IMG/VR virus record: IMGVR_UViG_3300046681_000127
Strand: one strand, 5' to 3'
DNA length: 27,143 nt
Origin: an uncultured virus (IMG/VR IMGVR_UViG_3300046681_000127)
Taxonomy: Duplodnaviria > Heunggongvirae > Uroviricota > Caudoviricetes
This document shows, in pieces, positions 4,740 to 27,102 of the stretch. The notes below the pieces were generated by a model. That model worked only from the letters and a program-made list of their open reading frames with translations, had not been told where the DNA came from and ran no database searches. The position numbers were made by a program, and so were the translations under genes. Position 1 is the stretch's first letter, and each line of letters opens with the position of its first letter.

Positions 4740-5543
4740 TCAGGCGCTCAGTTCCTCCTGGCCGCCCGACTCGAACAGCCGGATGATGTCGGCGAGTCCG
4801 GCGTAGATCTGCTCCAAGAGCGGTCGGTCCTCCTCGGAGTACACGACCACCTTGTCGATCCGGGAGCCGGCCGGGCCCGGGATCTTCTCGGGGCGGCGGC
4901 CGTGCAGCTTCAAGTACGCGTTCGAGACGCGCGAGCCGAATCCGGACTGGAACTTCGTCACCGTCGCGGGCTTGTGGCCCTTCTCGGCCAGGAACGTCGC
5001 GGCGTACAGCGGGGTCTCTGACGGGTCGAGCTCCGGGCGCTCACCCATGGCGCGGGCGACGATCACCTTCGCCGTGGCGGTCACGTAGAGCGCGGGGAGC
5101 AGCGGACTCAGGATCACGAGGAGCTCGGCCTGCGCGCGCGGTGGCTGCACGCCCATCAGGGAGGAGTTGAGTTCCTTCGGCGTCTCGGGTGGCGCGACCT
5201 CGAAGCGGCCGTTCTTGCGGATCTGCGGTATCACCTCGTGCGTGATCCACCGCTTGAACGCTTTCGCCTGCGGCTTCCGCGACCGCAGGATCAGCGAGTA
5301 CAGGCCCGGCTCATTCACCGTGACCATGTCCTGCGAGCCGCCGGGGGTGTCCATGGCGTGGACCCCCTTCTCGTCGTCGTCCAGGAGGGCGAGCGAGGAG
5401 CGCATGTTGCCCAGTTCCAGGGCATCGCCGATGTCGCGGGCGACCCACCAGGGATCACCTTCGACCATCAGAGACCGCACGGTCTGCGCGGTCTCGGGGA
5501 ACACGTACACCAGCGGTGCGCTGGTGGATGGGACCATAGGCAT
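4740..5543 (-). CDS. Bro-N domain phage antirepressor
   Basis: GDPWWVARD...DEKG...TPGG.Q...VNEPGLYSLILRSRKPQAKAFKRWITHEVIPQIRKNG; start set at the ATG after GGAG. Confidence 0.92.
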   Translation of the reverse strand: MPMVPSTSAPLVYVFPETAQTVRSLMVEGDPWWVARDIGDALELGNMRSSLALLDDDEKGVHAMDTPGGSQDMVTVNEPGLYSLILRSRKPQAKAFKRWITHEVIPQIRKNGRFEVAPPETPKELNSSLMGVQPPRAQAELLVILSPLLPALYVTATAKVIVARAMGERPELDPSETPLYAATFLAEKGHKPATVTKFQSGFGSRVSNAYLKLHGRRPEKIPGPAGSRIDKVVVYSEEDRPLLEQIYAGLADIIRLFESGGQEELSA

Positions 5544-5629
5544 GGTCCACTCCGATCTGTTGCTGACAGAGGGGTTGCTGGACAGGGGCCCGCCTCGTAC
5601 TTGGCCGTTCTGGGGCGGGCCCACCGCTA

Positions 5630-6209: not shown

Positions 6210-6629
6210 CTACGCCTCCGCGAGTAGCCCGGTGAGCGCCCGCACCCGCTGGGCGTGGGCCTCAAGGCCGACAGCCACGGACTCGGCGAGTGCGGCGTCC
6301 AGCGGCATGCAGTCGCCGTTCGACGAGACGAGCGAGAGGTACGGGGCGCGCTCCGCCGGCTTCTCGGAGAACGGCCACGAGGTGAGCTGCACCGTGACGG
6401 CCGCCTCCGCACCGTTCAGACCGGGGAGCGTGAGCGCCACCTCCGCGCCCTGGTGCTGGATGTCCTCAAGCACGACGACCGCGTCACCGTTGCAGCCGGT
6501 GCACCACTCGGGGTCCTCGATGCGGACCGGGGAACCGCAGACCGTGATCGTCACCCAGCGCAGGGGCGGCGTGACCGGAGCCACGGGGGCAGGGATGAGG
6601 GTAGATACTTCGGCGGTACGCTGAGACAC
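6210..6629 (-). CDS. DUF6907-like protein
   Basis: DPEWC...EDIQH motif, AAGGAG RBS before GTG. Confidence 0.65.
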   Translation of the reverse strand: MSQRTAEVSTLIPAPVAPVTPPLRWVTITVCGSPVRIEDPEWCTGCNGDAVVVLEDIQHQGAEVALTLPGLNGAEAAVTVQLTSWPFSEKPAERAPYLSLVSSNGDCMPLDAALAESVAVGLEAHAQRVRALTGLLAEA

Positions 6630-6731
6630 AGAGGTCTCCTTCCGTGAAGGGTGGGAACTTCTTGATCAGCGGCGGGAACCGCTGGTCTCTCGGCCGATCG
6701 GGCTTCCATCCCGGTCGGCCGTTCTGCTGCC

Positions 6732-9987: not shown

Positions 9988-10233
9988 GTGACCACCGACA
10001 AGCCCGCCCAGGACCGTGACGACAGCATCGCCTACTGGATCTTCGCCGCGATCGCCCTGTTCTTCGCCGCCCTCCTCGGCCGCGAGATGTACCTGCACCA
10101 CCTGCCGTTCACCGTGGGCCTGTTCGCGGGACTGTCCAGCTTCACCGGCGTCTACATGGGCCTCGGCCACCTGTGGGCCGGCTGGCAGCGCGCGCAGACG
10201 ACCGTCGCCAAGGACCAGAGCACCGAGCACTGA
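9988..10233 (+). CDS. Small two-TM membrane protein (Spd-like)
   Basis: GAGAGGA RBS before GTG; two hydrophobic helices. Confidence 0.7.
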   Translation: MTTDKPAQDRDDSIAYWIFAAIALFFAALLGREMYLHHLPFTVGLFAGLSSFTGVYMGLGHLWAGWQRAQTTVAKDQSTEH

Positions 10234-10267
10234 CCCACCCCACCCCCACCGCATGAAGGAGACCGAC

Positions 10268-11431
10268 GTGACCGCCAACCAGGTGAACGGCCAGAGGGTG
10301 CCGCTTGCCATGCCCGTGTTCGGCGAAGTGTGGCCCGTCACGCCTCCCCAGCCCGACCCGCAAGCCGAAACAGACCGCGCCGAGGCCGCGGCCCTGCTCG
10401 CCAAGGCCAACGAGATGCATGAGCAGGCCCAGCGCGACGCCGACAGCATCAAGCAGAAGGCGCAGGAGGAAGCCCAGCACCACATCGAGACCGCGAAGGG
10501 CCTGCGCGCCCGCACTCTCTCCGCCGCCGACCACGAAGCCCGCCAGATCCGCGAAGCCGTCGCGGCCGAGACCGACAAGGAGAAGAAGACCGCCGCCCAA
10601 CTCGACGTGTGGGCTGCCCGTGTCGTCATCGCCGGCGCCGTCGGTCTCACCGCATCCGGCGAGTACTCCCTCGCTCTCATGGTGGGCTTCAAGCCGCTGT
10701 CGGCGTGGCTGCTGCCGCTCGTCATCGACGTGTACGTCATCCAGGCGTTCCGCCGGCACCGCGACATCCTGCAGGCGATCGGCCTCACCATCGCCGCGAA
10801 CGTCATCTATCACCTTGCCGCGGTGGGCCTGTTCGGTCTCACACCGAAGGGCAAGCCGGAGTGGTGGTTGATCGCGGTGGTGGCGTCGATCGCGTCTCTC
10901 ATCCTGTGGCGGATGCACCTCATGATCGCGCCGCCGCGAGAGCAGAAGGCGAGGCGGCGCGACCGCGTCCAGGCGCCCGCCGAGACGCCCGTTCGCGCGC
11001 CCGTAGTCGTCGAGGTTGAGCGCCCAGAAGTGAGCGCCGAACCTGAGCGCCCGGCGCTCACCGAAGCCATGGTTGAGCGCGCTCAGATCGAGCGCCCGGT
11101 GAGCGCCCAACCCGAGCGCGCTGAGCGCGCCCAGAGTGGGCGCCCGCCGAAGCCCGCGACCGAGCGCCGCGAGCGCGCTCAGAGCAAGCCCAAGAAGAGC
11201 GCCCCCAAGTCGGTCGCCGACCGACGCCGCGAGCGCGTCCGCGCCCTGTACGCCGATCTTGGCAAGCGCCCGGAGTGGACGGAGATCCGCGACGAGCTCG
11301 TCGCCGCGAAGCTCGCCGACAAGACGATCTCCCGCTCCTCGTGCCAGCGGATCCGTGACGCCATCGAAGCCGACCACCCCGAGCTCGCCGCGCTCGGCTC
11401 ACCCAACGTCCGCTCCATCACCGGAAGCTGA
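10268..11431 (+). CDS. SpdB/DUF2637-like plasmid spread membrane protein
   Basis: AAGGAG RBS; N-terminal coiled coil, four TM segments (GEYSLALMVGF..AWLLPLVID...AANVIYH), Pro/Glu/Arg repeat linker, C-terminal HTH-like region. Confidence 0.75.
   Translation: MTANQVNGQRVPLAMPVFGEVWPVTPPQPDPQAETDRAEAAALLAKANEMHEQAQRDADSIKQKAQEEAQHHIETAKGLRARTLSAADHEARQIREAVAAETDKEKKTAAQLDVWAARVVIAGAVGLTASGEYSLALMVGFKPLSAWLLPLVIDVYVIQAFRRHRDILQAIGLTIAANVIYHLAAVGLFGLTPKGKPEWWLIAVVASIASLILWRMHLMIAPPREQKARRRDRVQAPAETPVRAPVVVEVERPEVSAEPERPALTEAMVERAQIERPVSAQPERAERAQSGRPPKPATERRERAQSKPKKSAPKSVADRRRERVRALYADLGKRPEWTEIRDELVAAKLADKTISRSSCQRIRDAIEADHPELAALGSPNVRSITGS
11018..11236 (+). repeat. Cluster of 12 GAGCGC direct repeats (candidate clt)
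   Basis: Copies at 11018, 11032, 11045, 11075, 11090, 11101, 11114, 11123, 11162, 11171, 11197, 11231. Confidence 0.8.
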
Positions 11432-11440
11432 GGACCCGCC

Positions 11441-11671
11441 ATGACCGATGAGACCCAGAGGCCCTTCGTCGTCGCCGTCGATGAGGCGGCGCCGTTCCTG
11501 AGCAAGCCTCGTTCGGGGAAGACCAATGCCGCCGTGATCGTGGCGCTGCAGGATCTCCTCCTGCTCGGCCGAAAGAGCGGTGTAGCCGTGCGAATCTCCC
11601 CTCCGAATCTGGTGCGCGTCCAGTACCCGACCGTCGAGGAACTGACCTTCAGGGCGGACCGCAATGCCTGA
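11441..11671 (+). CDS. 76-aa protein resembling the Walker-B region of TraB/FtsK ATPases
   Basis: GAGGA RBS; FVVAVDEAAPFL...LGRKSGVAV...QYPTVEEL. Confidence 0.7.
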   Translation: MTDETQRPFVVAVDEAAPFLSKPRSGKTNAAVIVALQDLLLLGRKSGVAVRISPPNLVRVQYPTVEELTFRADRNA

Positions 11672-11933
11672 GCAGTCCGCTGACCTGCCGTTCTCTACCC
11701 CCGACCGCGACAAGCCGCTGTCCGTGAAGCGCGCGGAGCGGAAGGCCCGTCGCGCGCTGCGGTGGGGCCCCCGGGCTGAGGCGGCGAAGACCGCCGGCCC
11801 CGCTGAGGCGGCGGTCGTGGAGTTCGACTGGACCCGCGCGAGCTTCAAGCGCCTGTCCGGCCCGGACGCCGAACGAGCGTGGGGCGCGCTGGCGGAGGCT
11901 CTCGCGCGAGTCCGCGAGGAGCACGCACAGTGA
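11664..11933 (+). CDS. Hypothetical protein
   Basis: Overlaps the upstream stop, high GC3. Confidence 0.6.
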   Translation: MPEQSADLPFSTPDRDKPLSVKRAERKARRALRWGPRAEAAKTAGPAEAAVVEFDWTRASFKRLSGPDAERAWGALAEALARVREEHAQ

Positions 11934-11941
11934 CCGCCGCC

Positions 11942-11981
11942 GAGTAACGAGACCAGTAACAGACCGAGTAACAGCCGTAAC
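11942..11981 (+). repeat. Intergenic GTAAC direct repeats
   Basis: GTAAC at 11944, 11956, 11968, 11977 (plus one at 12043). Confidence 0.8.
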
Positions 11982-12077
11982 CAGCAGGGACTCGTGCGGC
12001 TGCGCGCACCCGCGAGTGCGCGCGCGCGAGAGTACACACACCGTAACCATCGATCAAGTCCAGACAGGGAGATCAAA

Positions 12078-12551
12078 GTGTTTGAACCAGGCGCCGTCGG
12101 CGCCGCATCCGGAGGAATGTGCCTCGGCCTGGCCGGGCTCGCATTCGCCGCCGAACGGCTGCCCGGCATCAACCGCATCACCAACAAACTCCACACCGAC
12201 CGCATGCAGGCCGTACTGCTCCTCACCGCGTCGTTCGGGATCATCTCCACCCCCGCCGGCCGCTGGTGGCACAACGCCGTCAATGCCATCAACGGCTGGA
12301 TGTCGGGCATCGCCGGCCATTGGACCGGGCTCGCATTCACCGGGGTCCTCGCCCTGCTGTGCCTGCTGTACCTCATCAACGACCTGGTGACGCGGCGCGT
12401 GGAGATGCGCACCCGGCTCCTCGCCTGCGTCGTACCGGTACTGGCCGCGTCGATCCCCGGCACGGTCGGCACCATCGTCACGTCGGCCCTCGGCTACGTC
12501 GCCAGCGCGGTCGCCTGGTGCGTGGGCCAGCTCTTCGGGATCGGGGGCTGA
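12078..12551 (+). CDS. Multi-pass membrane protein of the transfer operon
   Basis: AGGGAG RBS before GTG; 4-5 hydrophobic segments. Confidence 0.75.
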   Translation: MFEPGAVGAASGGMCLGLAGLAFAAERLPGINRITNKLHTDRMQAVLLLTASFGIISTPAGRWWHNAVNAINGWMSGIAGHWTGLAFTGVLALLCLLYLINDLVTRRVEMRTRLLACVVPVLAASIPGTVGTIVTSALGYVASAVAWCVGQLFGIGG

Positions 12552-12552
12552 C

Positions 12553-13608
12553 ATGGAACTCCTCGTCCTGGCCGCGATCGCCTACGCCGCCGCCCGCGGC
12601 ATCGAGCAGATCACCGACGACTTCAAGGCCAGCTACAAGAACAAGGTCGCCGACGCCACGGTGAAGAAGGCCGCCAAGAACACGACCACCCCCACGGCCA
12701 CCGTCGCGGGGGTCGCGCCCGGCAGCACCTTCTCGGCCAAGGAGGCGGCGCCGCGCACGGCCACGATCGGCACGAAGACCGCCGCAGCGATCGCCGCTGG
12801 CGTTCAAGCCGGCGCCACGTTCCGGAAGTCCTACCTGGAGGGCTACCGGGAGGCGTGGCCGACCGCCCGCGAAGAGGCGCAGAAACGGCAGGTCGAGAAG
12901 GCCAAGCGCAGGCAGGCCGAACACGAAGCGAGGGCTGCAGAGCGGCGCGCTGAGGCCGCCGAGAAGAAGGCTGCGGATGCCAAAACGCCGCCGCCCGCCG
13001 CGATCGTCGTGACGACGGTCCCGCCGAAGACGGAGACGACGCCCCCGAAGGCCGCCCCCGCCAAGCCCGAGGAGAAGCCGGCCAGCACCCCGGCCGCCAC
13101 CCCGCCGGCCGAGGTTCAGCCGGTTGAGCCCCAGCCCATGACCGACGTCCCGGCCAAACCCTCCCTGGTCCTCGTCAAGGACCCCAACCCCAACCCCGCC
13201 CCTGCCCCCATAGCGCCCGGAGACACCGTGACCATCCCCGAAGTCCGCACCCTCGACGGCCTCCTCCACGCCCTCCAGATCATCAACGCCGTCTCCCTGA
13301 TGCGCGCCGAGGAAGCCGCCGCGATCGCCGCCGACGACGCCCAACTCGCCGCCCAGCTCGACGCGTTCGAAGCATCGCTGGTCGACCAGGAGGTCGACAC
13401 CAAAACCCTCGCGGAGATCGGCGCGCTCCGCGAGCTCATCTCCGTGCAGGCCACCACCGCCCAGCAGTACCAGGCCGCCGCCCAGAACGCCGCCGACATG
13501 GCCTCCGGCACAGCCAGCGCCGCCCACAAATCCCACGGCGGCATCAACGAAGCCGTCCAGTCGTCCCCGATCCCCGCCGCCGCCCAGGCCGGCTACTACG
13601 AGCGCTGA
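12553..13608 (+). CDS. Transfer-associated protein: N-terminal anchor, Ala/Lys/Pro linker, C-terminal helical domain
   Basis: Long high-GC3 ORF; C-terminal 126 aa paralogous to the next gene (IPEV...EVD...HGxIxEAV...P.P.A....Y). Confidence 0.8.
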   Translation: MELLVLAAIAYAAARGIEQITDDFKASYKNKVADATVKKAAKNTTTPTATVAGVAPGSTFSAKEAAPRTATIGTKTAAAIAAGVQAGATFRKSYLEGYREAWPTAREEAQKRQVEKAKRRQAEHEARAAERRAEAAEKKAADAKTPPPAAIVVTTVPPKTETTPPKAAPAKPEEKPASTPAATPPAEVQPVEPQPMTDVPAKPSLVLVKDPNPNPAPAPIAPGDTVTIPEVRTLDGLLHALQIINAVSLMRAEEAAAIAADDAQLAAQLDAFEASLVDQEVDTKTLAEIGALRELISVQATTAQQYQAAAQNAADMASGTASAAHKSHGGINEAVQSSPIPAAAQAGYYER

Positions 13609-13618
13609 GGAGCGTCCC

Positions 13619-14011
13619 ATGCCCGTCACCGCAATCCCCGAAGTCACCAACCACAGCGCCCTCCTCGCCGCCCTCGCGATCATCCGCATGGAAGTCGAGG
13701 CCCGCCAGGAAGACGTCCGCGCCCTCGCCGCCGGCGCCCAGCAGATGGCCGCCCGCACCCGGCGCATGGGTGAGGAGCTCAAGGGCCTGGAGGTCGACAA
13801 CATCACCGTCGGCAACATCAACGCCGTCGCCGACACCATCGAAGGCCAGGCCGCCGCAGCGATCCGGTACGCCTCGCACACCGACTCGACCGTGTCGCAG
13901 GCCGAGCAGGCATCCCGCACCGCGGTCCGTAACCACGGCGCGATCGAGGAGGCCGTCAACGGCGCGCCCGTCCCGATGGCCCAGCCCGCGTTCTACACCG
14001 AACCCGCCTAA
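13619..14011 (+). CDS. Small helical transfer-associated protein
   Basis: GAGGAG RBS; paralogue of the upstream C-terminal domain; directly precedes traB. Confidence 0.8.
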   Translation: MPVTAIPEVTNHSALLAALAIIRMEVEARQEDVRALAAGAQQMAARTRRMGEELKGLEVDNITVGNINAVADTIEGQAAAAIRYASHTDSTVSQAEQASRTAVRNHGAIEEAVNGAPVPMAQPAFYTEPA

Positions 14012-14034: not shown

Positions 14035-16008
14035 ATGCCCCGCAAGCCCGTACTGGCCGTCAAGGCCGCCACCCCGGCGAACGCCAAGAAGGCCGCCGTT
14101 GAGGAGCGGCTGCGCGCATGGCTGTCCACCAACCGTGTACGGCTCGCCCCCGTCTCCATGGCGCTGTCGATGCCCGTGGAAGGACTCGTCCTGCACGCGA
14201 TCGATGACGGCTGGAAGACGGCGGCCGCGCTCGGCCTCGGTGGCGTCGCATGGGCCGGGACGTGGGGCTGGGCAGCCGGCGCCGGCAGGTTCACCCGGGC
14301 GCTGCCTGAGGTCCGGGACCGGTGGATGGCCCTCACGGGTGCCGTCACCGGTTCCGGCCTCATCACCTCCATGGCGCTGACCGGGCCGCCCGACCTGGGT
14401 GGTAATCCGTACTGGGGTCTCATCGCCACCTGGGGCGGCGTGTACGGCACCTGGTGGTGGAAGCGCGCCGGCCGCGCCGGCGCCGCCGCCGACCTGGCCC
14501 CGCTCGCCGAAGACATCCTCATCTGGGACAAGCACGTCGCCAACCCCGGCGGCGCCCTGCCGCGCAGCGAACTCATCGAGATAGAGCCCGTACCCGGCAA
14601 CGGCTGGACCGCCATCGTCCTGGCCGAACGCGGCAAGAAAGCCATCGTCGACCCGGGGGCCATCGTCTCCGCCTACGACACCGACGCATCCCTCGTCGAC
14701 TACGAGTGGAACGTCAACCAGCCGCGCCGCGGCCGGGTCCGCGTCATGAAGCACAACCCGCTGCAGAAGGGCAGCGTCTTCACGGACCCGCACATCCTGG
14801 ACCGGGCGACCGGGCGTGCGGTCGTCGGCGCCTACACCGACGGCGACGCCACCGGCTACCAGTTCTACTACGACGGCAACGGCGGCTCCGGTGTCGTCCA
14901 CAGCTTCATCGTGGGCACCACTGGCTCCGGCAAGTCGCGGTTCCTCGACCAGCTCCTGGCCATCGAACGCCACAACGGGATCATCTCGTGGATCTGTGAC
15001 CCGCAGGGCGGCCAGTCCCTCCCCGACTGGACCGAGGCCGCCGACTGGTTCGCGCCGACCGCCGAGGACGGCTACCGGATGCTGCTGGCCGCGCAGCGCG
15101 TCGTCGAGGAGCGCTCCAACCGGTACGCGCGCATGCAGTGGACCGACGAGAAGGGCCGCACTCGCCGCGGCAAGGCTTCCTACCACCCCGACGCCCCGGG
15201 CATGGACCCGATCCTGTCGCTGACCCTCGAAGAGGCCCCTGCGCTCATGGCCATCCATGGCGCTGCGGACATCGCCGCGGACATCGGCAAGCGGGGCCGC
15301 AAGTGCGGCGTCAAGCTCCGCCTGGTTGCGCAGGTCCCCAACCTGGACGAGCTCGGCAACAAGGCCAGCCTGCGGGCGATGCTGCAGTCCGGGAACATCA
15401 TCCTGCTCCGCACCGACTCCTCCAGTGGCAGCCGTCTCGCGCTCGGCAACGCCATGGACTCCATCGACCCCAACGCCATCCCCAAGTACTGGCCCGACCG
15501 CACCCCAACTGGTGGCCTCGGCTACATCTCCGGCCCCGACGGACGCTCCGGCATGTTCCGCACCGCCTTCCTCGCCGACCCCTACGACTACGCGTCCACC
15601 GGCGAAACCGTGCACCTGGAGAAAGCCAGCCACGACGCGGCCGGCACCCACTACCTGGAGGCCGAGGCCCGCATGCAGGCGCACCTCAACGGCGAGGAAT
15701 GGACCAGCGCCGAAGCAGCCCCGGCACCCACCCAGGCACCGGTCGCGGTCACCCCCGCTGCCGCCTCGGTTGTAGCCGCAGCCACGACCGCGCCCGTCGG
15801 CACCGCGAAGAAGATCGTCGACTTCCTGTACGCCGCCGGACGGCCCGTCGCCCGCGCCACCATCGCCCACAAGCTCGGCCTCACCGGCCCCCAGGTCGGC
15901 ATGGCCCTGAAGCGTGAAAAGGACCGCCAGCCGCCAGCGGTGGTGCCCCTCGGCAATGGCGCCTGGGTCCACACCACCATCGCCCACGAGTACGCCGACG
16001 CCGCCTAG
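14035..16008 (+). CDS. traB: TraB-like FtsK/SpoIIIE conjugative DNA translocase
   Basis: N-terminal TM helices, Walker A GTTGSGKS, DPQGGQSLPDW, Walker B LTLEEA, GRKCG..L..Q, C-terminal winged helix (RATIAHKLGLTGPQVGMALKR...GAW). Confidence 0.88.
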   Translation: MPRKPVLAVKAATPANAKKAAVEERLRAWLSTNRVRLAPVSMALSMPVEGLVLHAIDDGWKTAAALGLGGVAWAGTWGWAAGAGRFTRALPEVRDRWMALTGAVTGSGLITSMALTGPPDLGGNPYWGLIATWGGVYGTWWWKRAGRAGAAADLAPLAEDILIWDKHVANPGGALPRSELIEIEPVPGNGWTAIVLAERGKKAIVDPGAIVSAYDTDASLVDYEWNVNQPRRGRVRVMKHNPLQKGSVFTDPHILDRATGRAVVGAYTDGDATGYQFYYDGNGGSGVVHSFIVGTTGSGKSRFLDQLLAIERHNGIISWICDPQGGQSLPDWTEAADWFAPTAEDGYRMLLAAQRVVEERSNRYARMQWTDEKGRTRRGKASYHPDAPGMDPILSLTLEEAPALMAIHGAADIAADIGKRGRKCGVKLRLVAQVPNLDELGNKASLRAMLQSGNIILLRTDSSSGSRLALGNAMDSIDPNAIPKYWPDRTPTGGLGYISGPDGRSGMFRTAFLADPYDYASTGETVHLEKASHDAAGTHYLEAEARMQAHLNGEEWTSAEAAPAPTQAPVAVTPAAASVVAAATTAPVGTAKKIVDFLYAAGRPVARATIAHKLGLTGPQVGMALKREKDRQPPAVVPLGNGAWVHTTIAHEYADAA

Positions 16009-16017
16009 GAGGCAGCC

Positions 16018-16281
16018 ATGCCCGCCGTACCCCCGCAGTACGAGTTCACCGCCACCACCGCGCAGGAAGCCACGACGCTGCTGGACGCCGCCGAGAAGCT
16101 GCTCCAAGCGCACCTGATGATGCTCGCGCCCGACGACAACATGGTCCGCATCGAACTACGGAAGCGGACCCGGGTCGCCATGAAAATCACCCTCGACCTC
16201 GGCAACATCGTCCGCACGATCAGCGAGGTCGAGACGCTCAACGAGCAGATGCAGTCCCCGGCCACCGACCCCGCCGAATAG
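16018..16281 (+). CDS. Hypothetical protein
   Basis: AGGAGG RBS, high GC3. Confidence 0.75.
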   Translation: MPAVPPQYEFTATTAQEATTLLDAAEKLLQAHLMMLAPDDNMVRIELRKRTRVAMKITLDLGNIVRTISEVETLNEQMQSPATDPAE

Positions 16282-26286: not shown

Positions 26287-27102
26287 ATGAGAAGCCGAGC
26301 AGACTCACCCACCAAGACCTGTGCCGAGGCCGGATGCGGCAACGCACTGCGAGCCCGCGGCCTGTGCTCCACGCACTACAACCAGCAGCAGCCAGGCCGG
26401 CACAAGCCGACGGCCGCGGCATGCAGCGTCTGTGGAGCCGAATGCAGCAAGGGCAGAACACGCGAGCGAGTCGTCTGCTCCTTCGCCTGTCGCTGGTTCC
26501 TGCAGAACGAGCAGCACAGCAGCCCCGTGTCGTTCCCCGCCTGCGAGTGGTGCGATGCCACGTTCGCCACTCGGCTACCTGGAGCGCGCTGGTGCTCGGA
26601 CGCATGTCGGTTCACGGCCCAGCGCACCGAGTGGCCGACGTGCCAGGTCTACTACGCATCCTGCAGCTGGTGCGAGGCGCCCTTCACCACCTGGCATCCG
26701 GGGCAACGATGGTGCACGCCACGATGTGCAGGGCGTGGTGGCAGGGCTGCCCGTCGGGCGCTTGAACGAGGCGCCGCCGGAACGTTCACGTGGGCAGAGG
26801 TCATCGGTCTCTTCATCCGGTTCGGCCGATGCTGCGCCTACTGCAGACGACAAGTCGACGGCCAGCCGGACCCGGACCACGTCGTGCCGCTCAGCCGAGG
26901 CGGATCCAACTCGATCACCAACATCCTGCCGGCATGCCGGAGATGCAACGGCGACAAGCGCGACCTGTCTCTCGATGAGTGGACGGCCGATCGTCGGCGT
27001 CGCAATCTGCCAGCCGTCGTGACGACCTGGGCCGTCGGCGACCCCAAGTATCTCCACCTCGCGATCTCCCGCTCGGTCACTCAAGGTGACTTGGCGGCGT
27101 GA
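26287..27102 (+). CDS. HNH endonuclease with multiple N-terminal Zn-ribbon repeats
   Basis: CAYC...DHVVPLSRGGSNSITNILPACRRCNGDK; three CxxC...CxxxC repeats; GGAG RBS. Confidence 0.9.
   Translation: MRSRADSPTKTCAEAGCGNALRARGLCSTHYNQQQPGRHKPTAAACSVCGAECSKGRTRERVVCSFACRWFLQNEQHSSPVSFPACEWCDATFATRLPGARWCSDACRFTAQRTEWPTCQVYYASCSWCEAPFTTWHPGQRWCTPRCAGRGGRAARRALERGAAGTFTWAEVIGLFIRFGRCCAYCRRQVDGQPDPDHVVPLSRGGSNSITNILPACRRCNGDKRDLSLDEWTADRRRRNLPAVVTTWAVGDPKYLHLAISRSVTQGDLAA

Follow-up and report, generated by a model that had tools for sequence, protein, structure and literature searches.

Conjugation in Streptomyces relies on a single FtsK-like pump, TraB. It is controlled transcriptionally through kil/kor, and to our knowledge no other level of TraB control is understood. 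The tra/spd operons of Streptomyces also encode small proteins that form a web of mutual interactions, several of which bind peptidoglycan; in two-hybrid assays, Orf108, Spd79, and Orf140 of plasmid pSVH1 interact with one another as well as with TraB, and Spd proteins are defined by function, through pock size and intramycelial spreading (excerpts of PMC4447253). Here, we describe a very small open reading frame (ORF), ORF76, in a 27,143-nucleotide stretch from an uncultured virus (IMG/VR record IMGVR_UViG_3300046681_000127; the window hereafter denotes this whole stretch). The sequencing runs that contain the window point to a rhizosphere or root metagenome as its origin, and no RNA run is listed among them. 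ORF76 (11441–11671, + strand) encodes a protein of 76 amino acids (aa), P0001, and sits 2.4 kb upstream of traB (14035–16008, + strand; P0002, 657 aa), which encodes an FtsK-like conjugative DNA translocase, with four genes between them. A first-pass annotation, made by a model from the letters of the window, had described P0001 as a copy of the Walker B-to-GRK/Q segment of this TraB and as a possible mimic or inhibitor of the translocase.

Relation of the mini-proteins to the TraB core

Used as a single-sequence query against proteins of similar length, P0001 recovered only itself and P0003 (76 aa, 83% identity), and none of 230 longer candidates (134–2000 aa) gave a significant match. The representative library returned nothing besides P0001 and P0004, a 1542-aa tandem-repeat protein that we rejected as spurious, since its score adds up a weak match of 25 residues across at least nine repeats. 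Genome and metagenome contigs gave no match with P0001, and phage records none with P0001 or P0009. In plasmids, tblastn found a 41% identical ORF of 64 aa. It comes from a Streptomyces yangpuensis plasmid and lies two genes downstream of the gene for a TraB-like ATPase. With this 64-aa protein as query, 18 Streptomyces plasmids, pSV2 and pSLE2 among them, proved to carry small “hypothetical” ORFs, 16 of which cover at least 80% of the query. A long form of 100–104 aa, located directly after traB on pSRP1-type plasmids, came with 11 more Streptomyces records.

A profile search of a collection of 5.8 billion proteins yielded 108 stand-alone clusters of 50–104 aa (E ≤ 1e-3). Those with a named source are all from Streptomyces and all labelled “hypothetical protein”, and none of the 108 carries a Pfam domain. 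Most members (82 of 108) measure 60–69 aa and 12 measure 94–104 aa, while the 76-aa type comprises P0001 and P0003 only. P0001 scores 94 bits against the profile of this family (E = 1.7e-21). These matches place ORF76 in a family of Streptomyces plasmid proteins that has no name and whose members are very small (50–104 aa). Pfam, NCBIfam, and PHROGs contain no model naming it: P0001 has no Pfam match at E ≤ 1 and no NCBIfam match, none of 14 members matched PF01580 at E ≤ 10, and the other members met only TraC-F-type models in NCBIfam (E = 0.1–0.2). No description of the family was found in open-access full texts and preprints. Because its relatives are 108 stand-alone small proteins and not parts of a decaying longer gene, ORF76 is not a recent decaying piece of such a gene, in agreement with its earlier description as maintained.

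The likeness between ORF76 and the window TraB is marginal when this pair is taken by itself. BLASTP aligned residues 29–72 of P0001 with TraB residues 409–444 (20.4 bits, E = 0.013, 16 of 44 identities, one 8-residue gap) and left out the Walker B part. The question was therefore settled through relatives. A profile comparison by hhalign of the 108 mini-proteins with 31 TraB motor domains from other genomes gave a probability of 90.7% (P = 1.3e-6) and set P0001 residues 8–70 on TraB residues 392–442 (PILSLTLEEAP...GRKCGVKLRLVAQVPNLDELGN; 15208–15360, + strand). Fourteen mini-proteins against 14 TraBs gave 91.5% (P = 8.7e-7), and here the long members extended the match to the helix before Walker B. 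As a control, the 63 core columns scored 41.2, and 300 column shuffles gave a mean of 12.4 (standard deviation 2.1, maximum 20.6), none of them reaching the real score. This core-column control replaced a full-alignment version in which 6 of 200 shuffles scored 133–144; the one of these alignments inspected in full was a gap-column artefact, 4–18% identical and with gap-only columns at its end. In pairwise BLAST, mini-protein segments also aligned with the Walker A helix of TraB-like proteins (E = 0.01–0.03), an alternative that we rejected at an hhalign P of 0.04–0.16.

Other libraries returned the same segment. The best solved-structure match of the 108-member profile was Escherichia coli FtsK (2ius_A, E = 0.0089), over VVLVDEFADLMM...KARAAGIH, followed by an EssC-type chain (4nh0_A, E = 0.21) and Pseudomonas aeruginosa FtsK (2iuu_A, E = 0.83) among 14 chains listed, some of them unrelated. 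The 14-member profile placed a HerA protein first (E = 0.09, same motifs), and P0001 alone matched two HerA models in PADLOC (E = 0.006 and 0.013) with residues 7–52. In 401 Streptomyces genomes, three of six weak matches (L030, L031, and L032) lay in long open frames at Walker-B-like segments. By Pfam, L030 and L031 are FtsK_SpoIIIE proteins, and L032 has almost the same sequence as L031 where the match lies; the remaining three were a Mutator transposase, an unassigned 180-aa frame, and a 51-aa frame. When the ORFs in all six frames of the window and of 16 loci were searched, TraB ORFs made up 11 of the first 12 non-family matches, hit in or just before the Walker B–GRK stretch (family members, two frameshift pieces of locus L005, and a remnant at locus L015 were set aside). 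A language-model Atlas feature search, which we regard as a lead only, ranked FtsK/SpoIIIE fragment clusters second and third (0.93 and 0.91).

We conclude that the mini-protein family is very probably a true homologue of the FtsK/TraB-type ATPase segment. The comparisons indicate that it arose once, from the part of such a core that holds the Walker B strand, the next helix, the arginine finger, and the Q-x-P motif. The profile match to FtsK ATPases on which the first-pass annotation had staked its reading is present for FtsK (2ius_A), for TraB by hhalign, and for HerA in PADLOC. Its alignment by eye with the window TraB thus captured a likeness that is real at the level of the family and marginal for the single pair.

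The family has kept some landmarks of the parent segment and lost others (counts refer to the 108 members, in P0001 numbering). A Walker-B-like strand, FVVAVDEAA (pattern hhhhDE; residues 9–17, 11465–11491, + strand), aligns with LSLTLEEAP of TraB and VVLVDEFAD of FtsK. Its Asp column reads D in 81 of the 108 members, with gaps in 25, and the column of the catalytic Glu reads E in 14, D in 89, and A in 4, P0001 itself having VVAVDE. The subsequent helix leads into a GRKxG motif (residues 30–47, AAVIVALQDLLLLGRKSG; 11528–11581, + strand) with R44 (codon 11570–11572), which is R in 104 of 108 members, flanked by G43 (G in 100) and G47 (G in 105). R44 aligns with the R of KARAAG in FtsK 2ius_A and with the GRK of TraB. 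In P. aeruginosa FtsK, Arg620 is the canonical arginine finger (excerpts of PMC9410874). By our own count of 24 residues from the Walker B Glu, which is consistent with the positions of Asp599 and Arg632 in the same excerpts, we infer that R44 matches Arg620.

Further downstream, QYPTVEEL (residues 61–68; 11621–11644, + strand) is the counterpart of QVPNLDEL in TraB and QRPS in FtsK, with Q61 kept in 100 members, Y62 in 93, P63 in 93, and T64 in 100; P8 (102), L20 (102), L39 (103), and L68 (99) are similarly well kept. Between the two motifs, the mini-proteins have 5–10 extra residues after GRKxG compared with TraB and FtsK, and the register there depends on the method: hhalign sets QYPT on TraB QVPN, whereas an ungapped HMMER alignment sets RRPL on FtsK QRPS.

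The first-pass annotation had also pointed to PRSGKT (residues 23–28; 11507–11524, + strand) as a Walker-A-like string. The string is there, but it is not conserved: 2 of 108 members have GK[ST], and none has a full Walker A, [AG]xxxxGK[ST]. In P0001 the context is SKPRSGKT, which differs from that consensus, and the string follows the Walker-B-like strand within a lineage-specific insertion of six residues that is missing in 12 of 14 aligned members. As this insertion is peculiar to P0001 and P0003, the string reads as a coincidence. Judged by its motifs, the mini-protein cannot be an ATPase, because it has no P-loop, has mostly lost the catalytic Glu, and spans only a quarter of the RecA-like core.

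Linkage to traB, proposed role, and rival explanations

Every mini-protein locus read in context has traB in the same operon. On pSV2-type plasmids the gene order is fixed and consists of a large protein, a ~145-aa gene, traB, a 62-aa membrane protein, the mini-protein, and a ~165-aa gene. Among the 401 Streptomyces species genomes, 8 contain a strong match (E ≤ 7e-16); the centre genome of these had been chosen for having the mini-gene, which leaves 7 of the other 400. All eight also encode a TraB homologue (E ≤ 1e-10), which occurs in at least 64 of the 401 genomes. In seven of the eight, the mini-gene lies on the same contig and strand as traB, no more than ~1.1 kb downstream of its matched part, and in the eighth it lies on a contig of 1.8 kb. 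Stand-alone homologues near traB, for which the first-pass annotation had recommended a search, do therefore exist, downstream of traB in seven of the eight genomes.

The ratio of nonsynonymous to synonymous substitution rates (omega) was estimated with the GY94 codon model (F3x4) for 15 pairs from six pSV2-type plasmids. The mini-gene has a median omega of 0.32, with values below 1 in 14 of 15 pairs; the 62-aa neighbour gave 0.068, the C-terminal half of traB 0.074, and two other neighbours 0.11 and 0.081. Estimates by NG86 were set aside, as they reached ~1.2 for the mini-gene but 0.35 even for traB and are inflated by biased GC content at third codon positions. Allelic variation shows where the constraint lies. 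A variant contig (run X4) contains a second allele of ORF76. Of the 13 amino-acid differences that separate P0001 from P0003, 9 are accounted for by 9 base differences listed for this allele, and three other listed ones are silent. With codons assigned by hand, all 13 replacements between P0001 and P0003 fall in residues 2–34 and 56–60, and none in residues 35–55 or 61–76, the stretches that hold GRK and QYPT. Third positions account for 4 of 13 listed differences in ORF76 and 13 of 23 in ORF89, the next gene. ORF76 is thus under purifying but relaxed selection, mainly on two C-terminal motifs, and the dN/dS check proposed in the first pass describes a gene that is constrained yet faster than its neighbours.

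Because the Arg, Gly, and Gln have been kept while the catalytic residues are gone, we propose that the mini-protein docks on the nucleotide interface of TraB. It would have no stable fold alone, would bind at or near the inter-subunit nucleotide site, and would serve as a non-catalytic accessory subunit that modulates assembly of the TraB ring or ATP turnover. The conserved Arg, which in FtsK reaches into the ATP site of the neighbouring subunit, the following Gly, and the Gln would then be what selection has kept. An accessory, non-catalytic partner of TraB appears to be the most economical reading, given a near-invariant cross-subunit Arg and strict linkage to traB, and we put the chance that the mini-protein acts on TraB at about even. 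Within such an action, we tentatively envisage braking or capping of the pump, be it for timing, against self-toxicity, or to interfere with related plasmids; a helping role as arginine-finger donor or assembly factor seems unlikely, braking or capping being somewhat more likely. A possible, though tentative, form of the braking role is that of arginine-finger micro-proteins, P-loop-less splinters inserting Arg and Gln at the inter-subunit ATP site of TraB and thereby gating the transfer of double-stranded DNA. With similar reserve, such gating may limit the plasmid’s own toxic motor or interfere with the pumps of competing plasmids.

A number of observations weigh against this proposal. The mini-gene evolves 3–4.5 times faster than its neighbours (omega 0.32 versus 0.07–0.11). 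It is dispensable to many TraB systems, with strong matches in 8 of the 64 TraB-positive genomes, and four of the five closest TraB relatives, fetched with their flanks, are without it. One copy, on Streptomyces globosus plasmid NZ_CP030863 (L005, 6950–7200), is split by a frameshift and annotated as a 40-aa ORF only, and on Streptomyces canus plasmid NZ_CP108710 (L015) a C-terminal remnant is all that is left (frame 6437–6703, E = 0.0021). The window is the only locus with the mini-gene upstream of traB, directly after a DUF2637 gene; in all others it lies downstream. AlphaFold2 predicted no confident fold for P0001 or a 104-aa member, with a monomer predicted local distance difference test (pLDDT) score of 66.5 and 56.8, respectively, and two strands and two helices taken out of a core are not expected to reproduce the surface of the protein they come from.

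Finally, the first-pass idea that ORF76 mimics the TraB of its own plasmid found no backing, own-TraB scores not exceeding those with other TraBs. The window mini-protein is identical to its own TraB at 13 of 39 anchor positions (score 57) and scores 62 against the TraB of another plasmid, and pSV2-type mini-proteins score 24–45 with their own TraB versus 39–72 with pSRP1-type TraBs. By these anchor-block scores, the TraBs of the window/pSRP1 type are nearer to every mini-protein than its own TraB is. In the absence of cognate mimicry, one old origin is favored over co-evolution.

An accessory modulator would be compatible with the patchy distribution and fast evolution of the family, which do not prove one. 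The AlphaFold2 models contain helices only, where FtsK has helices (residues 26–45 in P0001), and no strands; for two interior strands torn from a sheet, a solo fold of low confidence would be expected, and these models suggest folding on a partner. A complex prediction of TraB residues 150–540 (31 alignment rows) with the mini-protein (108 rows), run twice and without controls, scored 0.00 both times and speaks neither for nor against binding.

The rival that survives best, although we consider it somewhat unlikely, is that the fragment was exapted as a small adaptor or regulator of the transfer-spreading apparatus that does not work via the TraB ATP site. Possible partners would be another Spd-type protein, DNA, and the cell wall, with the conserved Arg, Gly, and Gln serving a new contact. 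Interacting small proteins are typical of tra/spd operons (excerpts of PMC4447253), and the lack of cognate mimicry, the lack of a confident ATPase-like fold in AlphaFold2, and the 5–10-residue insertion, which falls in the strand after GRKxG, all suit this explanation. However, the best-kept residues are those that are important at the nucleotide site of the parent ATPases, none of which a wholly new function would need, and the linkage is specifically to traB.

That the mini-gene is a slowly decaying relic is quite improbable. On this view, part of a translocase gene would have been duplicated long ago, and the duplicate would now do little or nothing, its frame staying open because stop codons are rare in GC-rich DNA; indeed, stop-to-stop frames around the mini-gene run to 150–295 aa, so that openness alone proves little. 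The raised omega, the almost even spread of differences between copies across the three codon positions, the patchy distribution with one frameshifted and one truncated copy, and the low pLDDT are all in line with decay. Yet the 108 clusters retain a common start, length class, and stop, and a Shine-Dalgarno-like motif (GGAG, GAAGGAGAA, and similar) precedes the start in 12 of 13 members inspected, the exception being L002 with a GTG start. Length differences between members are in-frame, with one frameshifted copy among ~25 read as DNA. Omega stays below 1 in 14 of 15 pairs, and GRKxG and QYPT are where conservation is concentrated, whether the whole family or the two alleles are compared.

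Very unlikely, in turn, is a chance or convergent resemblance, in which a real family would be unrelated to FtsK/TraB and merely share common features, namely a hydrophobic strand that ends in an acidic residue, a helix, and a GRxG turn. The weak single-sequence scores of P0001 (BLASTP E = 0.013, no Pfam or NCBIfam match), the alternative Walker A alignment, and ABC-transporter and ribosomal-protein chains among the weak PDB matches would be expected under such a resemblance. They are outweighed by the profile–profile P of ~1e-6 that none of 300 shuffles approached, the poor P of the competing alignment, the prolonged match of the long members, and the agreement of four independent libraries on one superfamily and segment (PDB with FtsK and HerA, PADLOC HerA, and genome-wide FtsK_SpoIIIE proteins). 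Finally, we regard it as extremely unlikely that ORF76 is a read-through product or the formerly fused C-terminus of the upstream DUF2637 protein: both share a frame (11441 minus 10016 being a multiple of 3) with only a TGA and three codons between them, but no longer candidate of 134–2000 aa matched significantly, all other members read in context are located elsewhere, after traB, ORF76 has its own Shine-Dalgarno sequence, and the X4 variant differs upstream of 11437, where it has AGGAGAA and a TGA that, if it is the upstream stop, lies 16 nucleotides (nt) from the ATG and hence out of frame.

If the mini-protein does act on TraB as an accessory subunit, bacteria would provide a case in which an interior piece of an ATPase has evolved into a regulator of that ATPase, and this regulator might offer a way to influence competition between plasmids in antibiotic producers. 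Gating of this kind, if true, would add protein-level control of Streptomyces conjugation beside kil/kor. Otherwise, there is still an unannotated family, unnamed in Pfam, NCBIfam, and PHROGs. Conserved proteins of ~65 aa that come from the nucleotide-interface part of a pump and sit in its operon on many plasmids make for a concrete, testable hypothesis.

ORF76 and its neighbourhood

ORF76 runs from its ATG at 11441 to a TGA at 11669–11671, in the frame quoted by the first-pass annotation. Read from the sequence, a Shine-Dalgarno-like GAGGA (11430–11434, + strand) stands 6 nt 5′ of the ATG and overlaps the TGA stop (11429–11431) of the upstream gene. The ATG of the next gene, ORF89 (11664–11933, + strand), overlaps the ORF76 stop by 8 nt (ATGCCTGA), which suggests translational coupling. 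The GC content of ORF76 per codon position (0.68/0.45/0.81) shows the coding pattern of the neighbouring genes; traB has 0.68/0.53/0.91, and the element as a whole ~70% GC. Long frames on the opposite strand (11399–12481 and 11179–11664) are not supported, as the GC frame plot follows the + strand frames. ORF76 is a real gene, and its own ribosome-binding site and overlap with the next gene are as first described. Repeat, promoter, and terminator scans around ORF76 showed nothing notable.

The + strand operon consists of a gene with a DUF2637 match (10016–11431), ORF76, ORF89, ORF185, ORF351, ORF130, traB (14035–16008), ORF87, and ORF155. The first of these has a weak match to PF10935 (E = 0.0049, 17.2 bits versus a Pfam cut-off of 22.8) and an uncertain start codon; its stop is separated from the ORF76 start, in the same frame, by 9 nt. 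DUF2637 genes are the first genes of the corresponding operon in relatives, and ORF89 homologues occupy the same place in related plasmids. The window TraB matches PF01580 (FtsK_SpoIIIE) with E = 1.7e-5 and 24.8 bits, against a cut-off of 24, and NF041214 (plasmid_TraB) with E = 2.2e-13 and 49.6 bits, far under the model cut-off of 800.

In pSRP1, pSV2, and one relative, the DUF2637 gene is followed by a conserved 53-aa membrane protein ending in DHGxxCWWCHPRLLPxKRR (L013 3358–3519, L007 191–352, L008 97–258). In these operons it takes the position of ORF76, to which it has no sequence relation. ORF351 (12553–13608) and ORF130 (13619–14011), both on the + strand, each match both pre-traB genes of relatives (E ~1e-10 to 1e-14) and appear to share a domain. 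Directly after traB lies ORF87 (16018–16281, + strand), which has a homologue at the equivalent site of genome G148 (L064 10818–11078, 33% identity) and no family assignment in library scans. Since pSRP1-type plasmids have the long mini-protein at this place, ORF87 was considered as its counterpart and rejected, hhalign against the family (P = 0.079) showing no relation. In the X4 variant contig, ORF89 carries two pairs of compensating one-base indels (11786–11790 and 11872–11876), each shifting the frame for 1–2 codons. Other genes of the element encode a family-2 glycosyltransferase (3–1376), a Bro-N domain protein (4740–5624, − strand), a DUF6907 protein (6210–6629, − strand), and an HNH endonuclease (26287–27102).

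On the plasmids, a C-rich stretch of ~35 nt (CCCCGCTCCCCCACCCCTCGCGCCCTCCCCGCC-like) directly 3′ of the mini-gene TAG stop is conserved across the pSV2 type (L001 8190–8230 and equivalent places in L002–L004 and L006–L011) and might be a regulatory or clt-like site. The mini-gene of L027 (G267:C8) is divergent, with TGHRDD for TGRRNG and a changed C-terminus after QYPT, and this copy may be decaying. In L015 (5278–6703), the annotation places a gene for the RNA-guided endonuclease IscB immediately downstream of traB, at the site of the long mini-protein in relatives and next to the mini-protein remnant.

Comparison with known systems

The Spd and Orf proteins of tra/spd operons resemble the mini-proteins in their small size and genetic location, and none of them is described as a fragment of TraB in the excerpts of PMC4447253. 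With the FtsK/SpoIIIE–HerA ATPases, including TraB (PF01580; NF041214), the mini-proteins share an order of motifs over ~55 residues: a hydrophobic strand ending in D[DE], a helix, G/A-R-x-x-G, and Q-x-P-[ST/N]. The long mini-proteins have also kept the helix before Walker B, and the mini-gene belongs to the traB operon. Unlike these ATPases, in which a RecA-like core of ~200 aa is embedded in a protein of 650–770 aa, the mini-proteins measure 50–104 aa, lack Walker A in all 108 members, have the catalytic Glu in 14, and carry the insertion of 5–10 residues after GRKxG. They are without membrane, alpha, and winged-helix domains and score below all Pfam and NCBIfam thresholds. In the operational sense, the mini-protein is thus not a member of the FtsK/SpoIIIE family, having neither Walker A nor the family score.

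The D2/D3 domains of EccC/EssC from type VII secretion (L031 and L032), which are degenerate ATPases, belong to the same superfamily, are catalytically weakened, and are matched by the mini-protein profile in the same segment. They are believed to regulate the active domain, but as complete domains fused in cis, whereas the mini-protein is a free fragment. A trans-acting parallel is offered by LAP1 and LULL1, activators of the Torsin AAA+ ATPases, which keep an arginine finger, cannot bind nucleotide, and act in trans. By analogy, our proposal would likewise have a nucleotide-less ATPase relative with an arginine finger act on an ATPase in trans. LAP1 and LULL1 differ in being eukaryotic and in having a whole ATPase-like fold; the mini-protein is a fragment known from sequence, and TraB has a finger of its own.

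The microProteins LITTLE ZIPPER and Id are small stand-alone derivatives of one interaction region that are thought to act as dominant-negative partners of their parents. The mini-protein may be compared with them as a small stand-alone product of one region of a larger protein. It differs in its source, the interior of an ATPase core on a bacterial plasmid, while LITTLE ZIPPER and Id stem from autonomous dimerization domains of transcription factors. Sequence comparison shows the mini-protein family to be derived from a parent and to lack its catalytic parts, as microProteins do. By analogy with these systems, the mini-protein, if active at all, would work like a degenerate subunit or a microProtein of its parent enzyme.

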